The position numbers and the translations under genes are program-made. A DNA stretch of 63,659 bases. Source: Lentisphaeria bacterium. GTDB lineage: Bacteria; Verrucomicrobiota; Lentisphaeria; JABSQK01; JAWLHB01. The stretch is from NCBI GenBank assembly GCA_041690595.1, contig JAWLHB010000048.1:1-63659 (forward strand), in the 5' to 3' direction. A model generated the notes under the pieces. That model saw nothing but the letters and a program-made list of their open reading frames with translations, did no database searches and had not been told where the DNA came from. How positions within the stretch are numbered: position 1 is the first letter of the stretch; each line of letters starts with the position of its first letter. Below, piece after piece: positions 33,313 through 47,695 of the stretch.

Positions 33313-33443
33313 CTTCGCACCCTCGCCTTTGAGATTGCTTGACAACCACTCGCCCTGCTCCGAAGATGACACAGCATTTTTCAGTTGCAAGCGGGCAACT
33401 GAAACGACCCGCGGAGGCCGAATTGCAGTATAGTAACCATCCT

Positions 33444-38969
<5,526 letters not shown>

Positions 38970-40126: not shown

Positions 40127-40741
40127 ATGAAGATCCTGGTTGTTTATTATTCCATGTACGGACATGTCCTTCAGCTGGCGCGGGCCGTTGAAGAAGGAGC
40201 AAAATCGGTGGCAGGCGCAGAGGTGATCTTCCGACGGGTCGCGGAATTCGAGGAGGTCATCCGGAAAACCGCCGATAACGACTTCATTGTGAAAATCCGC
40301 GAGGAGCAGGCAGATGTACCCGTCTGTACGGTTGACGACCTGCGGCAGGCGGATGGCATCCTCTTCGGGTCGCCCACCCGCTACGGCAACATGACCGCGC
40401 AGATGAAGCAGTTGATCGACTCCACCGCCAGCCTCTGGCTCAACGGTGAGATGGAAGGCAAGCCGGCCGGCCTCTTCACCTCGACAGCCTCGACGCACGG
40501 CGGCCAGGAGACCACGTTGCTCACCATGATGGTCCCCCTCATTCACCTTGGCATGGTCATTGTCGGCGTCCCTTACTCGACGGAAGGGATGATCCATACG
40601 GAGGCGCGCGGCGGCACGCCATACGGTGCATCGACCATCGCGGGGCCGAAGGGCGAGCTGCAGCCGACGCCGGAGGATCTCGCCATCGCCCGCACGCTGG
40701 GCGCACGGGTCGCCCGGATCACCGCCAAACTCCGCGGCTGA
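40127..40741 (+). CDS. wrbA: NAD(P)H:quinone oxidoreductase WrbA
   Basis: YYSMYGH, GSPTRYGNM, HGGQETT, GGTPYGAS. Confidence 0.95.
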   Translation: MKILVVYYSMYGHVLQLARAVEEGAKSVAGAEVIFRRVAEFEEVIRKTADNDFIVKIREEQADVPVCTVDDLRQADGILFGSPTRYGNMTAQMKQLIDSTASLWLNGEMEGKPAGLFTSTASTHGGQETTLLTMMVPLIHLGMVIVGVPYSTEGMIHTEARGGTPYGASTIAGPKGELQPTPEDLAIARTLGARVARITAKLRG

Positions 40742-40801
40742 ACCGACCAGCGATCACCAACTTCCACAACCTGGCGACGACGGCTTGCTTTCGGAATCAA
40801 T

Positions 40802-40817
40802 TTGCCTATATTACCAA
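40802..40817 (+). promoter_or_regulatory. Putative ArsR operator, box 1
   Basis: Imperfect palindrome TTGCCTATATTACCAA upstream of the ArsR gene; related box at 41201. Confidence 0.5.
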
Positions 40818-40839
40818 ATAGATGGAGGATTCTGGCGCT

Positions 40840-41163
40840 ATGACGGACGTTGACAGGCAACGATATGAAGCGAGGGCCGCAGTGATCAAGGCCCTGGGCC
40901 ATCCCAGTCGACTGATGATGGTGGATGAACTGGCGAAGGGGGAGCGGTGCGTCTGCGACCTGCAGACGATTGTCGGCAGCGACATGTCCACCGTCTCCAA
41001 GCACCTTTCTGTGCTCAGATCGGCGGGAATCGTCGAAGACGACAAGCGGGGGCTGCAAGTCTTTTACCGGTTGCGGGTGCCGTGCATCCTCAACTTCTTC
41101 GGCTGTGTCGAGGCGGTACTGAAGGAGCAGGCACGGGCTGCACAGGCAGCACTGCGAAGCTGA
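40840..41163 (+). CDS. arsR: ArsR/SmtB-family metalloregulator
   Basis: KALGHPSRL, ERCVCDL (alpha3 cysteines), STVSKHLSVL, PCILNFFGC. Confidence 0.9.
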   Translation: MTDVDRQRYEARAAVIKALGHPSRLMMVDELAKGERCVCDLQTIVGSDMSTVSKHLSVLRSAGIVEDDKRGLQVFYRLRVPCILNFFGCVEAVLKEQARAAQAALRS

Positions 41164-41200: not shown

Positions 41201-41216
41201 TTGGCTACATGGTCAA
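41201..41216 (+). promoter_or_regulatory. Putative ArsR operator, box 2
   Basis: TTGGCTACATGGTCAA, 11/16 identical to box 1, just before the next gene. Confidence 0.45.
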
Positions 41217-41238
41217 CAAGAAAGTGGAGAAACAAGCG

Positions 41239-41472
41239 ATGACGAAGATTCAGGTCCTGGGAACGGGCTGTCCCAAGTGCAAGAAGCTGGCGGATGCGGC
41301 AGAGAGTGCCGCCAAGGCTGCCGGCATCGACTACACGATCGAGAAGGTGACGGACATCAACGACATCATGGCTTTCGGCGTAATGATGACCCCCGCTCTG
41401 GTTATTGACGGGGAAGTCAAGACCGTGGGCAAGGTGCCGCCGGTGGAAGAGATTCAGAAGATGCTGGCCTGA
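41239..41472 (+). CDS. Small redox-active disulfide protein (MTH895/TM0996-type thioredoxin)
   Basis: KIQVLGTGCPKC, GVMMTPALVIDG. Confidence 0.92.
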   Translation: MTKIQVLGTGCPKCKKLADAAESAAKAAGIDYTIEKVTDINDIMAFGVMMTPALVIDGEVKTVGKVPPVEEIQKMLA

Positions 41473-41507
41473 CCAGTCAAACTCACATGCAATGGAGGAA
41501 GGGTGAG

Positions 41508-41903
41508 ATGAGTACGCAAGCACAGGGAACAGGTTGCTGTGGCGGAACGACGCTGATTTTCTCCTGCTCCGGCGCGGCGGATGTGGGCGCGGTCGCTGAC
41601 CGTGCCGCACGCAAGCTGACGCTGGACGGTGCCGGACGCATGTTCTGCCTGGCCGGTGTCGGCGGGCGGGTTCCGGGCATCATGAAGACCACCGAGGCGG
41701 CGGACAAGATTCTGGCGATCGATGGTTGCCCGCTGAACTGCGCGAAGGCCTGCCTCGAGCAGGCTGGGTTCACCAGCTTCACCCACCTGCAACTGGCCGA
41801 TCTGGGCATGCAGAAGGGGAAGACGGCGGTTGAGGAGAGCAGCATCGCCACGGTGGCGGCCAAGGGGGCCGAGCTGCTGGGCGGCGCCACCTGCTGTGGC
41901 TGA
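41508..41903 (+). CDS. DGC-domain putative zinc-binding protein
   Basis: SCSGAADVG, FCLAGVG, IDGCPLNCA. Confidence 0.9.
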   Translation: MSTQAQGTGCCGGTTLIFSCSGAADVGAVADRAARKLTLDGAGRMFCLAGVGGRVPGIMKTTEAADKILAIDGCPLNCAKACLEQAGFTSFTHLQLADLGMQKGKTAVEESSIATVAAKGAELLGGATCCG

Positions 41904-41985: not shown

Positions 41986-43191
41986 ATGGGAAAGTGGAAC
42001 CGAATGATTGTGGTCGTGCTGTTGTGCGGTGCCTGCACGGCTGGAGCCGGGGATAGACTGCCGGCGCTCCTTGATTTTGGCTCGAAAGCCTGCATACCGT
42101 GCAAGATGATGGCCCCTGTTCTGGAGGGGATGAATGACGCGTTTGCCGGTGTGCTCGACGTCGAGTTCATCGATGTCGGTCTCAAGGAGAATGTGACCAG
42201 AGCCAGGGAGTACAAGATCGCCACCATCCCGACGCAGATCTTTCTGGACGCGACCGGCAAGGAGCTTTGGCGCCATGAAGGGTTCATTACCCGCTACGGC
42301 ATGCTAACCAAGTGGCGGGAACTCGGTTTCGACTTTGCAAAGGCGGCTCTCGATTCCCCGCTGAAGCGCTACGAGGTGACCGCCGAGGCACCTGCCGGCC
42401 CCATCTGCTTCATGTGCGATGCACCCATCGCCGCGGATCAGGCGGTAACGGTGCCGAGCGACAAGGGGGAGGTGCGGATCTGCGGCGTTCATCATTACTT
42501 CGTGATGCTCTCCTGCCTGGAGAAGGAACTGGCCGAGACTGAGGAGCGCGCCACGGTCGCGGCGGCCGATACGGGCCAGCCGGTTCCCATGCGTCAGGCG
42601 ATCTTCCTGGTGGGGGCGGACGAAACGAGCGGCCGGCCATGGATCGCGGCATTTGCCGGGCGTGCGGCGGCGGAGACCGCGCGCGCCACCAAAGGGGGCA
42701 GCCTGCTGGGCTACGATACGCTCAAACGACAGGAGATGACGGCTCGCTGCGGTTTCTGCGACCGGGCGATGTATGTGCAGGATGGCGCCATCGTCAAGAT
42801 CGGTGGCATTCACAGCTTTGGCTGTTGCGCCCACTGTTCCATGGGCGTGGCTGCACGCACCGGGGGGGACATCGAGGTGCACGAGCAGGATCGGCTTACC
42901 GGCGAACCGGTGGTCATCCGCACCTTCGGGGGTTATGTCGTCTCCGTGGAACCGGCCACCGCCGTCGCCTGGTACGGAAAGAAGAAGGGGGCGAGCGGCA
43001 AGTGGGGCTCGGCCGGCTGTTTCCACCAGGGATTCTTCGTGAACGCGGAGAACCTTCGCCAGTGGCTGGAGGCGAATCCGCGGGAAACCGGTGAGCAGAT
43101 CAGCATCGACCAGTCGCTGGCGGACAAGATGGCAATGACACCGCAGCAGATCGCCAAGGCATGCAAGGTCGGGGAGTGCGCACCGAAATGA
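41986..43191 (+). CDS. Exported thioredoxin + NosL-like + MerB(alkylmercury lyase)-like multidomain protein
   Basis: Signal-like N-terminus; CIPC thioredoxin; CFMC..TGQPV..AIFLVG..AF..AAA..KGG.LL (NosL-like); CCAHC..TGEPV..VEPATAV..CFHQGFF..W (MerB-like). Confidence 0.7.
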   Translation: MGKWNRMIVVVLLCGACTAGAGDRLPALLDFGSKACIPCKMMAPVLEGMNDAFAGVLDVEFIDVGLKENVTRAREYKIATIPTQIFLDATGKELWRHEGFITRYGMLTKWRELGFDFAKAALDSPLKRYEVTAEAPAGPICFMCDAPIAADQAVTVPSDKGEVRICGVHHYFVMLSCLEKELAETEERATVAAADTGQPVPMRQAIFLVGADETSGRPWIAAFAGRAAAETARATKGGSLLGYDTLKRQEMTARCGFCDRAMYVQDGAIVKIGGIHSFGCCAHCSMGVAARTGGDIEVHEQDRLTGEPVVIRTFGGYVVSVEPATAVAWYGKKKGASGKWGSAGCFHQGFFVNAENLRQWLEANPRETGEQISIDQSLADKMAMTPQQIAKACKVGECAPK

Positions 43192-43649
43192 AGGTATGGA
43201 TTGGCCGGTTGCTCCTCTTTTTTGCCATCTTCACCCTGGGCTATGGTCTCGGCAAGGACTCCGCGGCCAGTCGCGCCACGACCGTGCCGCCGGCGCCCGT
43301 GGCGGCGGGAGAAGACAAGGTTCTCGTCTACTATCTGCATACGACCTTTCGCTGCGTCACCTGCAACAGTATCGAGCGGCAGGCACGAGAGCTTGTGGAG
43401 CGTGACTTCGCGGAAGAGGTCGCGACGGGTAAGGTCGAGTGGCACGCGGCCAACTTCCAGGAGCGCGAGGACCTGGCCAAGCGATACGAGATATCCGCCA
43501 GCACCCTGGTGATCGTCAGGATCGAGGATGGCGTGGAAGCGGAGTACCGGCGTCTGGATGATGTCTGGCAAGTCTTCGATCAGCCGGAGAAGTTCACTGC
43601 GTATGTCGGCGAAGCAATCCGCGACTACCTGCCGGAGGAGAGGCCATGA
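43188..43649 (+). CDS. ArsF-family thioredoxin-fold protein (membrane-anchored)
   Basis: VYYLHTTFRCVTCNSIE motif. Confidence 0.75.
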   Translation: MKVWIGRLLLFFAIFTLGYGLGKDSAASRATTVPPAPVAAGEDKVLVYYLHTTFRCVTCNSIERQARELVERDFAEEVATGKVEWHAANFQEREDLAKRYEISASTLVIVRIEDGVEAEYRRLDDVWQVFDQPEKFTAYVGEAIRDYLPEERP

Positions 43650-44377: not shown

Positions 44378-44830
44378 ATGAAGCAGCCCAACATCCAACT
44401 TAGCGGACTGACTGTCGTCTTGGCACTCTGTCTGATTTTGCAGTGGGGTTGCGGACGAACGCCCGCGAGCGGCGGCGAACCAGAGGCCGCCACCAGTGTG
44501 CCGGAGGCCGTTGTACCTGCTCCGGGAGGCGGCTCCCTGCCGCGGTTGCTCGATCTGGGCGCGAAGCAGTGTGTGCCGTGCCGGATGATGGCTCCAATCC
44601 TGGAAGATCTGGCGACGAACCATGCAAGCCAATTCGAGACTGTCTTCATCGATGTGTGGGAGAATCCCGAGCCAGGGAAGGAACATAATGTCAGTGCCAT
44701 TCCGACCCAGATCTTCTTTGACGAAGGGGGCAAGGAACTCTTCCGACACGAGGGCTTTTACTCCAAGGAACAGATCCTGGCCAAATGGCGCGAACTCGGC
44801 TACGACTTCAGCCCATCCTCAGGAGGTTGA
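44378..44830 (+). CDS. Thioredoxin-family lipoprotein
   Basis: Lipobox-like QWGC; CVPC; IPTQIF..RHEGF, paralogous to the N-domain of 41986. Confidence 0.85.
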   Translation: MKQPNIQLSGLTVVLALCLILQWGCGRTPASGGEPEAATSVPEAVVPAPGGGSLPRLLDLGAKQCVPCRMMAPILEDLATNHASQFETVFIDVWENPEPGKEHNVSAIPTQIFFDEGGKELFRHEGFYSKEQILAKWRELGYDFSPSSGG

Positions 44831-44834
44831 CCGG

Positions 44835-45767
44835 ATGCACGGATTGCGCCTCACGGCTTCATTGGGTTTGCTCCTCGCTTCAGTGGCAGTCGCCGCCGGC
44901 CAGCCGGCTGAGGATCCTGGGCGGAAGGTGCGTGTCGCCTATCCTGGTGCCGCTACCGGGCTGTTGCTCGAAGCCACCGTTGCCGATCTCGATAACTCGG
45001 TCATCCTGCGCGGCGAAGAGCTTGTCATCACCAAAGAGGAGTTCGACACCTTCGTGGCCCAGCTCCCCGCTCATCTCACGGTGCAGCAGAGCCCGGATCC
45101 GCTCCTGCTGCTGGAATACTTTGCTGCCAGCCGCCTCCTGCCGATCCTTGCGGGCCGCGCGGCTGCGACCGCGGAGAAGGCTGCCAATGACGATGAGGAT
45201 GCCCTGGTGCAGGCGTTTCTGGAGGAGCGGATTGCCGACATCGAGGTGTCGGAGGAGGAGATCAGCGCCTTCTACGCGGCAAACGCCGCGGCATTCGCGG
45301 GTGCCCCCCTCGATTCCGTCAAAAGTTATGTGCGGCAGTACGTGATGCAGGAGAAGCGGCGGGCGGCGATCGATGCCGTCATCCGCAACCTCGGGACTGA
45401 GGTGCCCTTGGAGCTTTCCGCGACGTGGTTGGAGAGTGCCGCAGCCCTTTCACTGGACAACCCCATCGACCGCGCGCGCGGCATGAAGAAGCCCTTGCTG
45501 GTCGTCTTCAGCTCCGCCAGTTGTTGCGGAACGGACACGATGCAGACGGTGAGCGATGCCGTGCGGCGTTTGGGAGCGGGGCGCGTGGAGGTGCTTCATC
45601 TGGATGCGCGACGACAGGTGCTGCTGGGCATGAGATTTGGCGTCAGAGCCTCACCCACGATCATCGGCTATGCGCCATCCGGCGATGAACTCTTTCGCCA
45701 GACTGGCGCCGCCAACGCGGAAGAGCTGCTCGCCCAGCTCGACTCGGCTGAACCGGCAGTTCCCTGA
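44835..45767 (+). CDS. Exported protein with SurA/PrsA-like helical region and C-terminal thioredoxin-like domain
   Basis: RBS AGGAGG; signal peptide; EVSEEEISAFY; LLVVFSSASCCG..FGVRASPT..GDELFR. Confidence 0.65.
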   Translation: MHGLRLTASLGLLLASVAVAAGQPAEDPGRKVRVAYPGAATGLLLEATVADLDNSVILRGEELVITKEEFDTFVAQLPAHLTVQQSPDPLLLLEYFAASRLLPILAGRAAATAEKAANDDEDALVQAFLEERIADIEVSEEEISAFYAANAAAFAGAPLDSVKSYVRQYVMQEKRRAAIDAVIRNLGTEVPLELSATWLESAAALSLDNPIDRARGMKKPLLVVFSSASCCGTDTMQTVSDAVRRLGAGRVEVLHLDARRQVLLGMRFGVRASPTIIGYAPSGDELFRQTGAANAEELLAQLDSAEPAVP

Positions 45768-45778
45768 GCACCCCGCTC

Positions 45779-47695
45779 TCAGTGGTTGAGATAGGTATAG
45801 CTGCTCAGGCCGTTCTCGAAGAGCCGCAGAATCTGGGCGGAGTCGGTGACCGTAATGTCCTCCCGCTCGACCGCGCGTTCGACCTTGGCGCGTAACCGTT
45901 CGAGAAGCTCGTTGGGATTGTACTGCAGGTAGGTCAGCACGTCGCGCACCGTATCGCCGCGGATGTAGTTCTGCAGCTTGTAGCCGCCGGAAGCATCCTG
46001 GATGACGTGAACGGCGTTGGTGTCGCCGAACATGTTGTGGAGATCGCCGAGGATCTCCTGATAGGCGCCCACGAGGAAAAAGCCCACGTAGTAGTGCTCG
46101 TCCGGCTCGATATGATGAATGGGCATCGAGGCACCGATGCACCCTTCGTTGATGTACTGCTCGACCTTGCCGTCCGAGTCGCAGGTGATGTCCGCGAGCA
46201 CGCACTGCAGGGTGGGCGGCTCGTTGAGGCGCTGAATCGGCAGGATCGGGAAGAGCTGATCAATCGCCCAGGAATCCGGCAGCGACTGGAAGAGCGAGAA
46301 GTTGGCGAAGAAGGTCGAGGCGAGGAGGGTATCGAGTCCCTCGAATTCCTGGTAATCGAGGTTGTGCTGCTTCGCGAGGCTGCAGATGCGCCCCATGATC
46401 GTCCAGAAGAGTTCTTCCATGTGGGCGCGCGCTTCGAGACTGAAGTTGCCGACGTTGAAGCGGGCCTGCGCCTGGCGTCTCAGGTAGACGGCATCATGAT
46501 AGAACTCGCGGCAGTTCCGAACGTCCAGCTCGTCATAGATATACTGCAGCTCGGGGAGCGGTTCCGGCGCGCCCTTTTCGGCACGTATGGCCAGCGTCGT
46601 CGAGGGAGCGGAGAAATCGACGAGGTTGGTCACCAGAACGCTGTAATGAGCGGTCAAGGCGCGGCCGGACTCGGTAATGACCGTTGGGGCGGGGAGCTTT
46701 TCATTTTCGCAGATCTGCTGGAGCGAAAAGATGATGTCGTTCGCGTACTCCTGCATGGTGTAGTTGATGGAGTGCGGGTTGCTGCTGGAGGTGCCGTCGT
46801 AATCGACGCCCAGACCTCCGCCGACGTCGACGTAGTCGATCTGTACGCCGATCTTTGCCAGCTCCGCATAGATTCTGGCGACCTCCGTCATCGCCACCTT
46901 GACGCGATCGATCTGCGAGATCTGGCTGCCAATGTGGAAATGCAGGAGCTGCAGGCTGTCGATCATATCATTCTCGCGGAGCATGTCGCAGGCGCGCATC
47001 AGTTCGTTGATGCGCAGGCCGAACTTGGAGCGGTCGCCGGCGGAAGATGCCCAACGCCCCGTCCCTTCCGTGGCCAGCTTGACGCGGACGCCGATGCTTG
47101 GCCGCAACCCCGTCTCTCGCGCGATCTTGATCACCCGTTCCACTTCCGAAAGCTTCTCGGCGACGATAATGACATTGTAGCCGAGCTGCTGCCCGCTGAG
47201 GGCCATGCGAATGAACTCGGCATCCTTGTAGCCGTTGCAGATCACCAGGCATGGGTAATCCGGCGAAACCGCCAGGACGGTGAGCATCTCGGGCTTGGAG
47301 CCCACTTCCAGCCCCAGCTTGGACGACTTGCCCGCCTGGATCATGGCTTCGACAACTTGCCGCTGCTGGTTCACCTTGATGGGGTAGACGGGATGGTAGC
47401 TGCCGTCGTAGTTGAACTCTTTCCGGGCCTTGGCAAAGCAACGGGTGATCTTCTTGATGCGATCGCTGAGGATATCCATGAAACGGATCAGCACGGGGGG
47501 TTGGATTCCGCGCTCGCGCAGCTCGTCCACCAGCTTCTTCAGGTCAATCTGACGTTTTCGATTGCCCTGGGGGCAGACGCAGACGTTGCCGGCCTCATTG
47601 ACCGTATAATAACCGGCGCCCCATTTCTGAATGCGAAAGAGGCGTTGCGCATCGGCCAACGTCCACGTAGCGGCAGTACGAGCTTTTTCGATCAT
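45779..47695 (-). CDS. speA: Biosynthetic arginine decarboxylase
   Basis: YPIKVNQ, GSKPE, HFHIGSQ, DVGGGLG, FSLFQSLPD.WAI.Q.FP, TCDSDG. Confidence 0.96.
   Translation of the reverse strand: MIEKARTAATWTLADAQRLFRIQKWGAGYYTVNEAGNVCVCPQGNRKRQIDLKKLVDELRERGIQPPVLIRFMDILSDRIKKITRCFAKARKEFNYDGSYHPVYPIKVNQQRQVVEAMIQAGKSSKLGLEVGSKPEMLTVLAVSPDYPCLVICNGYKDAEFIRMALSGQQLGYNVIIVAEKLSEVERVIKIARETGLRPSIGVRVKLATEGTGRWASSAGDRSKFGLRINELMRACDMLRENDMIDSLQLLHFHIGSQISQIDRVKVAMTEVARIYAELAKIGVQIDYVDVGGGLGVDYDGTSSSNPHSINYTMQEYANDIIFSLQQICENEKLPAPTVITESGRALTAHYSVLVTNLVDFSAPSTTLAIRAEKGAPEPLPELQYIYDELDVRNCREFYHDAVYLRRQAQARFNVGNFSLEARAHMEELFWTIMGRICSLAKQHNLDYQEFEGLDTLLASTFFANFSLFQSLPDSWAIDQLFPILPIQRLNEPPTLQCVLADITCDSDGKVEQYINEGCIGASMPIHHIEPDEHYYVGFFLVGAYQEILGDLHNMFGDTNAVHVIQDASGGYKLQNYIRGDTVRDVLTYLQYNPNELLERLRAKVERAVEREDITVTDSAQILRLFENGLSSYTYLNH

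Follow-up and report, generated by a model that had tools for sequence, protein, structure and literature searches.

The organomercurial lyase MerB has been described as an orphan of open origin whose only relative is NosL, and NosL and TRASH domains can be aligned with it too poorly to root it (PMC10114901, PMC8261052). Both MerB and NosL have been proposed to derive from duplicated TRASH-like treble clefs, the MerB site being a repurposed zinc site (PMC4999995). In NosL of Shewanella, zinc is held by C59, C62, C88 and D92, with the spacing C59-x2-C62...C88-x3-D92, and the adjacent cargo site holds copper through C62, M64 and M145 (PMC8457098). The MerB Cys117 position varies in MerB-like variants as well, and a variant survey names 99Ser and 117alt forms, with no 99Cys form among those in the accessible part of its text (PMC8261052).

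Three other described systems share features with the locus reported here. SaoL of the SAO system (NF040728) is likewise a MerB-like protein outside mer operons, found in anaerobes with genes for thioredoxin-like proteins and a DUF318-type permease as neighbors; it is a cytosolic (seleno)protein that keeps the catalytic Asp (Cys99/Asp102/Sec162; bioRxiv 2022.07.06.499078). ArsEFG-type gene sets are represented by the models TIGR00412, NF040494 and NF040495. Finally, operon C of Pseudodesulfovibrio mercurii ND132 (arsR-arsP-arsE-DGC) is induced by arsenic (bioRxiv 2022.10.17.512643).

We analyzed a 63,659-nucleotide stretch of DNA from a Lentisphaeria bacterium (hereafter the window), in which an ORF at 41986-43191 (+) encodes a 401-amino-acid protein. 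This protein combines an export signal, a thioredoxin domain, a NosL-fold module (A) and a MerB-fold module (B) in one chain. An earlier note, made from the sequence alone, had proposed such a triple fusion, and the proposal is borne out by Pfam and fold searches and by the best 120 relatives, 119 of which cover 90% or more of its length.

The N-terminal export signal (residues 1-21; 41986..42048, +) was assigned from the sequence and from a hydropathy census of relatives. A hydrophobic N-terminal stretch (mean of at least 2.0) is present in 112 of 115 assessable relatives, compared with 8 of 118 mature parts (five rows could not be assessed), and export of the protein, also claimed earlier, is predicted on these grounds. 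The thioredoxin domain (42049..42345, +) carries the CIPC motif that had been recognized by eye (C36-I-P-C39 at 42091-42102) and an invariant IP(T)Q. It matches Pfam Thioredoxin (PF00085) over residues 26-93 (E 1.6e-9) and solved thioredoxin folds with Z up to 14.8, so that fold, CxxC and cis-proline motif are all present; C36/C39 are kept in 119 of 120 aligned rows. Module A follows at 42394..42735 (+) and module B at 42742..43155 (+). The chain ends with the cysteine pair C393-x4-C398 (43162..43179, +), both members of which are invariant in 120/120 rows. In the AlphaFold2 model pLDDT falls below 50 at the last four residues, and the C393/C398 tail is probably mobile.

Module B is matched by Pfam MerB (PF03243) over residues 270-377 (E 2.6e-15; 56.9 bits, above the cut-off of 27), and Pfam NosL (PF05573) matches residues 191-249 below its cut-off (E 0.0087 at 16.8 bits, with scores of 16.8-18.4 bits overall; cut-off 24). 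None of the NCBIfam models reaches its own cut-off for the fusion protein, the MerB model giving 26 bits against a cut-off of 200 and the SaoL model NF040728 giving 12 bits against 140. Identity with SaoL was rejected on this score, on the Cys at the Asp102 position and on a GCF in place of the CU/CC motif; unlike SaoL, the fusion protein neither keeps the Asp nor is cytosolic. The top solved structure by sequence is MerB2 (5c17, E 3.2e-9).

AlphaFold2 models of residues 21-401 and 123-401 have the same pLDDT (94.2), with pTM values of 0.88 and 0.89, respectively. Thioredoxin matches crowded the fold searches made with the complete model, so modules A and B were folded alone. When the model of residues 123-401 was compared with 48,161 chains, only four gave Z of at least 5, and the next best gave 4.8. 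These four are MerB2 5c17 (Z 12.6, rmsd 3.1, 131 residues aligned, residues 253-390), NosL 7og7 (Z 12.3, rmsd 2.4, 108 aligned, residues 137-250), MerB 3f2g (Z 11.3) and apo-NosL 2hq3 (Z 7.0). Foldseek agrees with this result, and a search of the ESM Atlas with residues 125-401 returned no usable match. The structural check that had been suggested therefore matched both folds, and the module limits estimated by eye (about residues 139-247 and 254-382) agree with the fold-aligned ranges. The module B match spans MerB residues 73/77-209 only; the N-terminal part of MerB (residues 1-75) has no counterpart.

Every motif by which the modules had been noticed is present in the protein: CCAHC (280-284), TGEPV..VEPATAV, GCFHQGFF (344-351) and the CKVGEC tail (C393/C398). 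HMMER alignments concur with the by-eye register of CCAHC with WCALD and of GCFHQGFF with FCCHVHFF, placing C281 at Cys96, C284 at Asp99 (Ser in MerB2), C345 at Cys159, C280 at Trp95 and D302 at Cys117 of MerB. When the query was aligned with 119 relatives, the database copy of the window's own protein being left out, Cys284 was found to occupy the catalytic Asp position in 120/120 rows, as had been claimed, and D302 is Asp in 119/120. Eleven positions are invariant in all rows: C141, H169, C255, C258, C280, C281, H283, C284, C345, C393 and C398. Alignment locates the module B positions at 42748-42759 (C255 and C258), 42823-42837 (C280, C281, H283 and C284) and 43018-43020 (C345), all on the + strand. 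The invariant CGFC knuckle (C255/C258) and C280 had been absent from the earlier note. Together with C284 they form the tetrad C255-x2-C258-x21/22-C280-x3-C284 in 120/120 rows, with a spacing of 21 in 112 rows and 22 in eight.

The TRASH-type pattern is C-x2-C-x(about 20)-C-x3-C, and this four-ligand pattern is present in 120/120 rows. The C-x2-C...C-x3-C arrangement is common to TRASH-type treble clefs (L24e, YHS; PMC4999995) and to the start of both modules, but here it is embedded in duplicated NosL/MerB folds and accompanied by extra cysteines. Module B is thus a MerB body whose first treble clef is intact.

These observations bear on the role of C284, which had been proposed as the third thiol of a Cys3-type site suited to As(III), Hg or Cu. 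That proposal is weakened in two ways. First, C284 completes the four-Cys treble-clef pattern with C255, C258 and C280, and since this tetrad matches the zinc-ligand pattern of NosL, the more probable role of C284 is that of the ancestral fourth zinc ligand, not of the third thiol in a Cys3 site. Second, the tetrad is better kept in distant relatives than are the Cys96/Cys159 equivalents. Among 14 distant relatives taken from an unindexed search (one of which, P0198, appears to carry two A-type modules), the equivalents of C255, C258, C280 and C284 are the only cysteines invariant in 14/14, with C281 kept in 13 and C345 in 11; some members that have lost C345 retain the tetrad. Alignment to solved structures suggests that the module B cysteines cluster. 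C284 would be a zinc ligand that perhaps bridges to cargo on C281 and C345.

Module A shares the NosL fold (PF05573; 7og7, 2hq3), and the zinc-ligand spacing of NosL recurs in both modules. Its residues C141-x2-C144...C166-x2-H169-(C/H)170 include C141, C144 and C166 together in 107/120 rows, with C or H at 170, and C141, C144, C166 and (C/H)170 form a probable structural zinc site. The register C141 = NosL C59 follows from spacing and the fold-aligned range rather than from a residue-level superposition. In contrast to NosL, the protein lacks the Met64 and Met145 copper ligands, scores below the Pfam cut-off, is not part of a nos cluster and has three domains. The residue census of module A finds Gly (106 rows), Ala (9 rows) and never Met at the Met64 position (residue 146; n = 120), and module B has an invariant Arg at its equivalent. 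In the loop of the second repeat of module A that corresponds to Met145, no conserved Met or Cys is found among the aligned relatives.

Compared with MerB and MerB2 (PF03243; 3f0p, 3f2g, 5c17), module B has the catalytic-domain fold and the Cys96/Cys159 equivalents in common at about 20% identity. The differences are that the fusion has Cys at Asp99, Asp at Cys117 and Cys at Trp95; that it has an intact CxxC knuckle, of which MerB has none; that it lacks the N-terminal MerB domain; that it is fused to thioredoxin and NosL modules; and that it is exported rather than cytoplasmic and lies in an ars-type rather than a mer context. Despite likeness in fold and probable metal handling, the fusion thus fails the defining features of MerB, NosL and SaoL.

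Of 8000 candidates from a word-seeded search, 1824 proteins had an E of 0.001 or less, part of which will be thioredoxin-only matches. The best 120 of these are 52-100% identical to the query, one being the window's own protein, and all 120 have a MerB Pfam match. The 119 full-length relatives led us to reject an assembly artefact or a chance fusion. They come from Phycisphaerae, Planctomycetes, Sedimentisphaerales, Lentisphaeria, Verrucomicrobiota and Armatimonadetes, and the best 120 are labeled 'thioredoxin', 'hypothetical' or 'organomercurial lyase' at source. No published description of the architecture was found in the literature searched, which covers subscription journals little, and to this extent the earlier statement that none was known holds. 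The family is conserved but unstudied. Some members are longer (470-490 aa; P0049, P0057, P0061, P0062, P0067, P0072, P0078, P0082 and P0090, with loci at L001:7020-8459, L007:597-2036, L010:7041-8459 and L013:4788-6200). They start with CPC or CC and have one more hydrophobic segment ahead of the signal/anchor; they thus carry a further cysteine pair and are probably membrane-tethered. Module B has 29 matches in a plasmid collection, each at below 60% identity; those listed are annotated merB/merB2 or unannotated, and no close relative of the fusion family is among the matches.

The earlier note had also seen in the protein an evolutionary link between NosL and MerB, and profile comparisons and two trees support an intermediate position. 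A profile of 14 members matches MerB2 (E 7.6e-16), MerB (2e-6) and NosL (5e-5), and its matches to L24e at the start of both modules (E 0.4-1.3) are not significant. In hhalign, modules A and B align with each other at E 1.5e-5 (5e-7 in thioredoxin-less relatives), and they are homologous through the knuckle and helix motif. Against MerB-like proteins, module B gives a probability of 99.7 along their length and module A gives 0.8.

In a 70-row tree with A-type domains as outgroup, the MerB-like proteins form one clade (100/100) that is sister to module B (95/83); the MerB rows of this tree were found with the fusion as query, which is a bias. In a quick 47-row tree, to which seven mer-operon MerB proteins were added and from which the knuckle and cysteine columns were dropped, MerB (SH-aLRT 86) is sister to module B plus the B modules of thioredoxin-less relatives (88). 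A sister relation of module B and MerB that excludes the thioredoxin-less relatives was therefore not upheld, and we claim only that module B lies outside MerB. Both trees place it there with modest support, from 112-140 columns and with long branches. This position fits an ancestral-type site. Because module B falls outside MerB in both trees and the tetrad is common to the outgroup, the simplest reading is that the tetrad was lost once on the MerB stem. The trees and the retained tetrad agree with the treble-clef duplication proposal as far as it is set out in PMC4999995. The fusion is not itself an ancestor; it is a present-day relative that has an ancestral-type site.

Relatives with other arrangements were also observed. 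Exported NosL-MerB tandems without a thioredoxin domain (P0159, P0167, P0175, P0181, P0201 and P0218-P0220) keep the NosL CxxCxM in their B module; several have lipoprotein-like N-termini, and the PCC loop is kept. Since both CxxCxM and the PCC loop are retained, these tandems may be copper proteins. In two of their loci (L024:5622-8058 and L025:5956-8725), the genes downstream encode a small cysteine-rich protein and an FtsX/LolCE-like permease (the permease was scanned in L024). In the MerB-like proteins P0189, P0194, P0196 and P0217, it is the knuckle of the second repeat that retains a CxxC, the mirror image of the fusion family.

The fusion gene lies in an operon with the order arsR - arsE - DGC - fusion gene - arsF - arsG - trx - trx-like. 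The ArsR/SmtB repressor gene (40840..41163, +) encodes a CVC motif and matches Pfam HTH_5 and NCBIfam NF033788 above cut-off; its longest ORF starts at 40822, and the start at 40840 has the better ribosome-binding site. For ArsR of E. coli, the Cys32/Cys34 pair is reported to suffice (bioRxiv 2022.10.17.512643). An imperfect inverted repeat before arsR (40801..40820, +) is a putative operator, similar sites being found upstream of arsR in five of seven related loci tested. A 16/20-base match also lies about 70 bp upstream of the separate arsP gene of the window genome (G000:C18:56479-57844) and ranks seventh in a genome scan; it counts as modest evidence, because the operator scan scores 17-19 bits at unrelated places too. 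A WrbA-type NAD(P)H:quinone oxidoreductase gene (40127-40741, +) lies upstream of arsR, and flavodoxin-like genes occur in some related loci.

The next genes encode a small thioredoxin-like protein of the MTH895/ArsE family (41209..41472, +; TIGR00412, 112 bits, cut-off 62) and a cysteine-rich DGC-domain protein (41487..41903, +; PF08859, E 8e-30). Downstream of the fusion gene is a gene for an ArsF-family exported CxxC protein (43188..43649, +; NF040494, 98 bits, cut-off 60), whose start overlaps the fusion gene's stop (ATGA). Its own stop overlaps the start of the gene for an ArsG-family DsbD/CcdA-type membrane protein with two cysteines, C22 and C140 (43646..44344, +; NF040495, 259 bits, cut-off 200; Pfam DsbD_2). 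ArsG would act as an electron conduit; its NCBIfam name says efflux permease. The last two genes encode an exported thioredoxin that stands alone and shares about 50% identity with the thioredoxin domain of the fusion (44378..44830, +) and an exported protein with a C-terminal thioredoxin-like domain (44835..45767, +) that recurs beside the fusion gene in 8 of 23 loci. An arginine decarboxylase gene (45779-47695, -) converges on the operon end. ArsE, ArsF and ArsG genes, all above cut-off, are thus present under ArsR, as in ArsEFG-type sets, and DGC and ArsE are shared with ND132 operon C; the fusion protein is an addition to these sets, which do not include it as far as the descriptions consulted go.

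The 23 loci comprise the window, 18 genome loci and four further loci, many of them only partial stretches. An ArsG- or CcdA-type gene lies within 2.7 kb downstream of the fusion gene in 21/21 evaluable loci; the other two end at the gene. With many loci partial, arsE is found in 16 of the 23, arsF in 14, arsR and arsP-like genes in 13 each and DGC in 11. One or more of acr3, arsC and arsM are present in 10/23, and none of these occurs in the covered stretch of the other 13. A search of 58 chosen neighboring ORFs found no mer or nos gene at E 1e-8; small genes could be missed. The neighborhood, on which the earlier note did not draw, points to arsenic. Other genes were seen at single loci or pairs of loci, including an MtrA-like gene (corrinoid methyltransferase subunit) inside the operon in 2/23 loci (L010:5592-6359 and L013:2828-3559, above the NCBIfam subfamily cut-off) and an ArsM-Acr3 fusion in one 645-aa ORF (L005:11945-13879).

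The fusion gene is sporadic: among 301 genomes sampled from the window's phylum, five carry it and 41 have ArsF, with both present in 4 of those 41; the fusion protein is dispensable for the thiol relay. The five carrier genomes, which are 94-97% complete, have Acr3 and ArsP in 5/5 and ArsG in 4/5, with Acr3 saying little because it is common (7/14 control genomes). MerA and NosZ above cut-off are each found in 0/5, and HgcA in 0/5 apart from one split match (G254:C231:3577-4445), where hgcA lies in two pieces beside acr3, possibly through selenocysteine read-through or a frameshift. In the window genome, the fusion protein is the only PF03243 match and no NosL match is found at E 0.001; an arsR-arsC-arsM-acr3 cluster (C5) and arsP (C18) are on contigs other than that of the operon.

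We give an even chance to the reading that the fusion protein is a zinc-stabilized periplasmic binder or handler of trivalent (organo)arsenic that is kept reduced through ArsG/CcdA. C255, C258, C280 and C284 would coordinate one zinc ion in the manner of NosL C59, C62, C88 and D92, and module A would hold a second, structural zinc. Beside the module B zinc, C281 and C345 (MerB Cys96/Cys159) would capture a trivalent arsenical, either methylarsenite or arsenite, in the periplasm, with help from a bridging C284 or from the mobile C393/C398 tail. The ArsG/CcdA-type membrane protein could pass cytoplasmic electrons to the thioredoxin domain, directly or via ArsF or the free thioredoxin, and this domain would keep the cargo thiols reduced or free the bound arsenical. 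Such a protein would work like NosL, with a zinc-preformed site beside the cargo site, and would use a MerB-type cargo site for scavenging or hand-over rather than as a protonolytic lyase. That the substrate is arsenic is suggested by gene context alone.

A periplasmic organometal(loid) lyase, in which C281, C345 and C284 (or a zinc-bound thiol or water) protonolyse C-As or C-Hg bonds and the thioredoxin and tail release the product, is unlikely. The whole MerB catalytic body with the Cys96/Cys159 equivalents, and the hhalign probability to MerB-like proteins given above, are what such an enzyme calls for; hgcA lies directly upstream of the fusion gene in one of the 23 loci (L002:3971-5113), and ArsP, an organoarsenical permease family, is a neighbor in 13. 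Against this stand the absent counterpart of the MerB N-terminal part, the distant members that lose C345 yet keep the tetrad, and the lack of MerA above cut-off in all five carrier genomes. The literature, in so far as PMC10114901 reports it, cuts both ways: three-thiol model sites protonolyse methyl- and ethylmercury, but Asp99 is reported to be indispensable, and MerB2, in which Ser occurs naturally, is much less active. Since neither Asp99 nor MerA is found, a mercury lyase of the kind envisaged earlier is weakened.

Similarly unlikely is a periplasmic oxidoreductase in which a redox chain runs from ArsG/CcdA through the thioredoxin and the tail to C281/C345, with metal playing a structural role only; such a chain would reduce pentavalent (organo)arsenicals, or mend envelope thiols damaged by arsenic or oxidants. 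The DsbD/CcdA-type gene is the tightest partner (21/21 loci), the operon contains four further thioredoxin-fold genes, and the invariant C-terminal Cys pair is predicted to be mobile, all as this scheme would have it. However, neither sequence nor fold searches linked the protein to any known reductase of arsenate or sulfoxides, and the MerB/NosL fold is known for metal binding only.

A chaperone or buffer for copper(I) or another soft metal, comparable to NosL or to the sensor domain found in YcnK-type regulators, is slightly less likely still and, as the copper chaperone of the earlier note, weakened: the NosL fold, the CxxC...CCxHC motif shared with six DeoR-HTH-NosL proteins, copper(II) binding by MerB D99S (PMC10114901) and the below-cut-off scores of neighboring permeases against a Cu/Zn efflux family speak for it, but both NosL methionines are missing (Gly/Ala in 115/120 rows of module A and Arg in module B at Met64, no conserved Met or Cys in the module A Met145 loop), NosZ is above cut-off in 0/5 carrier genomes, and no copper ATPase, CopC/D or nos gene is among the 58 neighboring ORFs scanned.

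DeoR-HTH-NosL regulators with CxxC...CCxHC...CCAP are encoded at L026-L034, one of them (L029) adjoining a PCu(A)C copper chaperone gene. Their domains were scanned in three of the six proteins that share the CxxC...CCxHC motif, and theirs is the architecture of the copper repressor YcnK. Because the motif is common to these regulators, one of them beside PCu(A)C, it is by itself no argument for arsenic.

Quite unlikely, in our estimate, is a bolder form of the arsenic reading: that the fusion is a living intermediate between NosL/zinc finger and MerB that is already an enzyme, its zinc-thiolate and Cys96/Cys159 pair cleaving the C-As bond of methylarsenite (or C-Hg) O2-free in the periplasm and being recycled by its own thioredoxin and the CcdA-type conduit. 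If true, the protein would be an anaerobic organoarsenical demethylase, the C-As lyase known so far, ArsI, being a dioxygenase; it would also point to arsenic chemistry as the source from which MerB was recruited.

The family unites a MerB body with the full four-Cys site from which the MerB active site was proposed to derive, and it retains the zinc-finger cysteines that MerB is thought to have lost. Because one profile matches both MerB and NosL and the MerB body carries the full tetrad, the zinc-finger-to-lyase proposal can be tested on a single soluble protein by a small number of point mutations. With this family, the arsenic-type operons of uncultured Planctomycetota, Verrucomicrobiota/Lentisphaeria and Armatimonadota gain a periplasmic component that has no name. 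Database labels of 'organomercurial lyase' on family members (P0079, P0084 and P0120) may inflate merB counts in anoxic metagenomes. Elsewhere in the window, an ORF at 33339-38969 (+) encodes a 1876-aa UvrA-like protein in which a duplicated ABC ATPase core can be read by eye.
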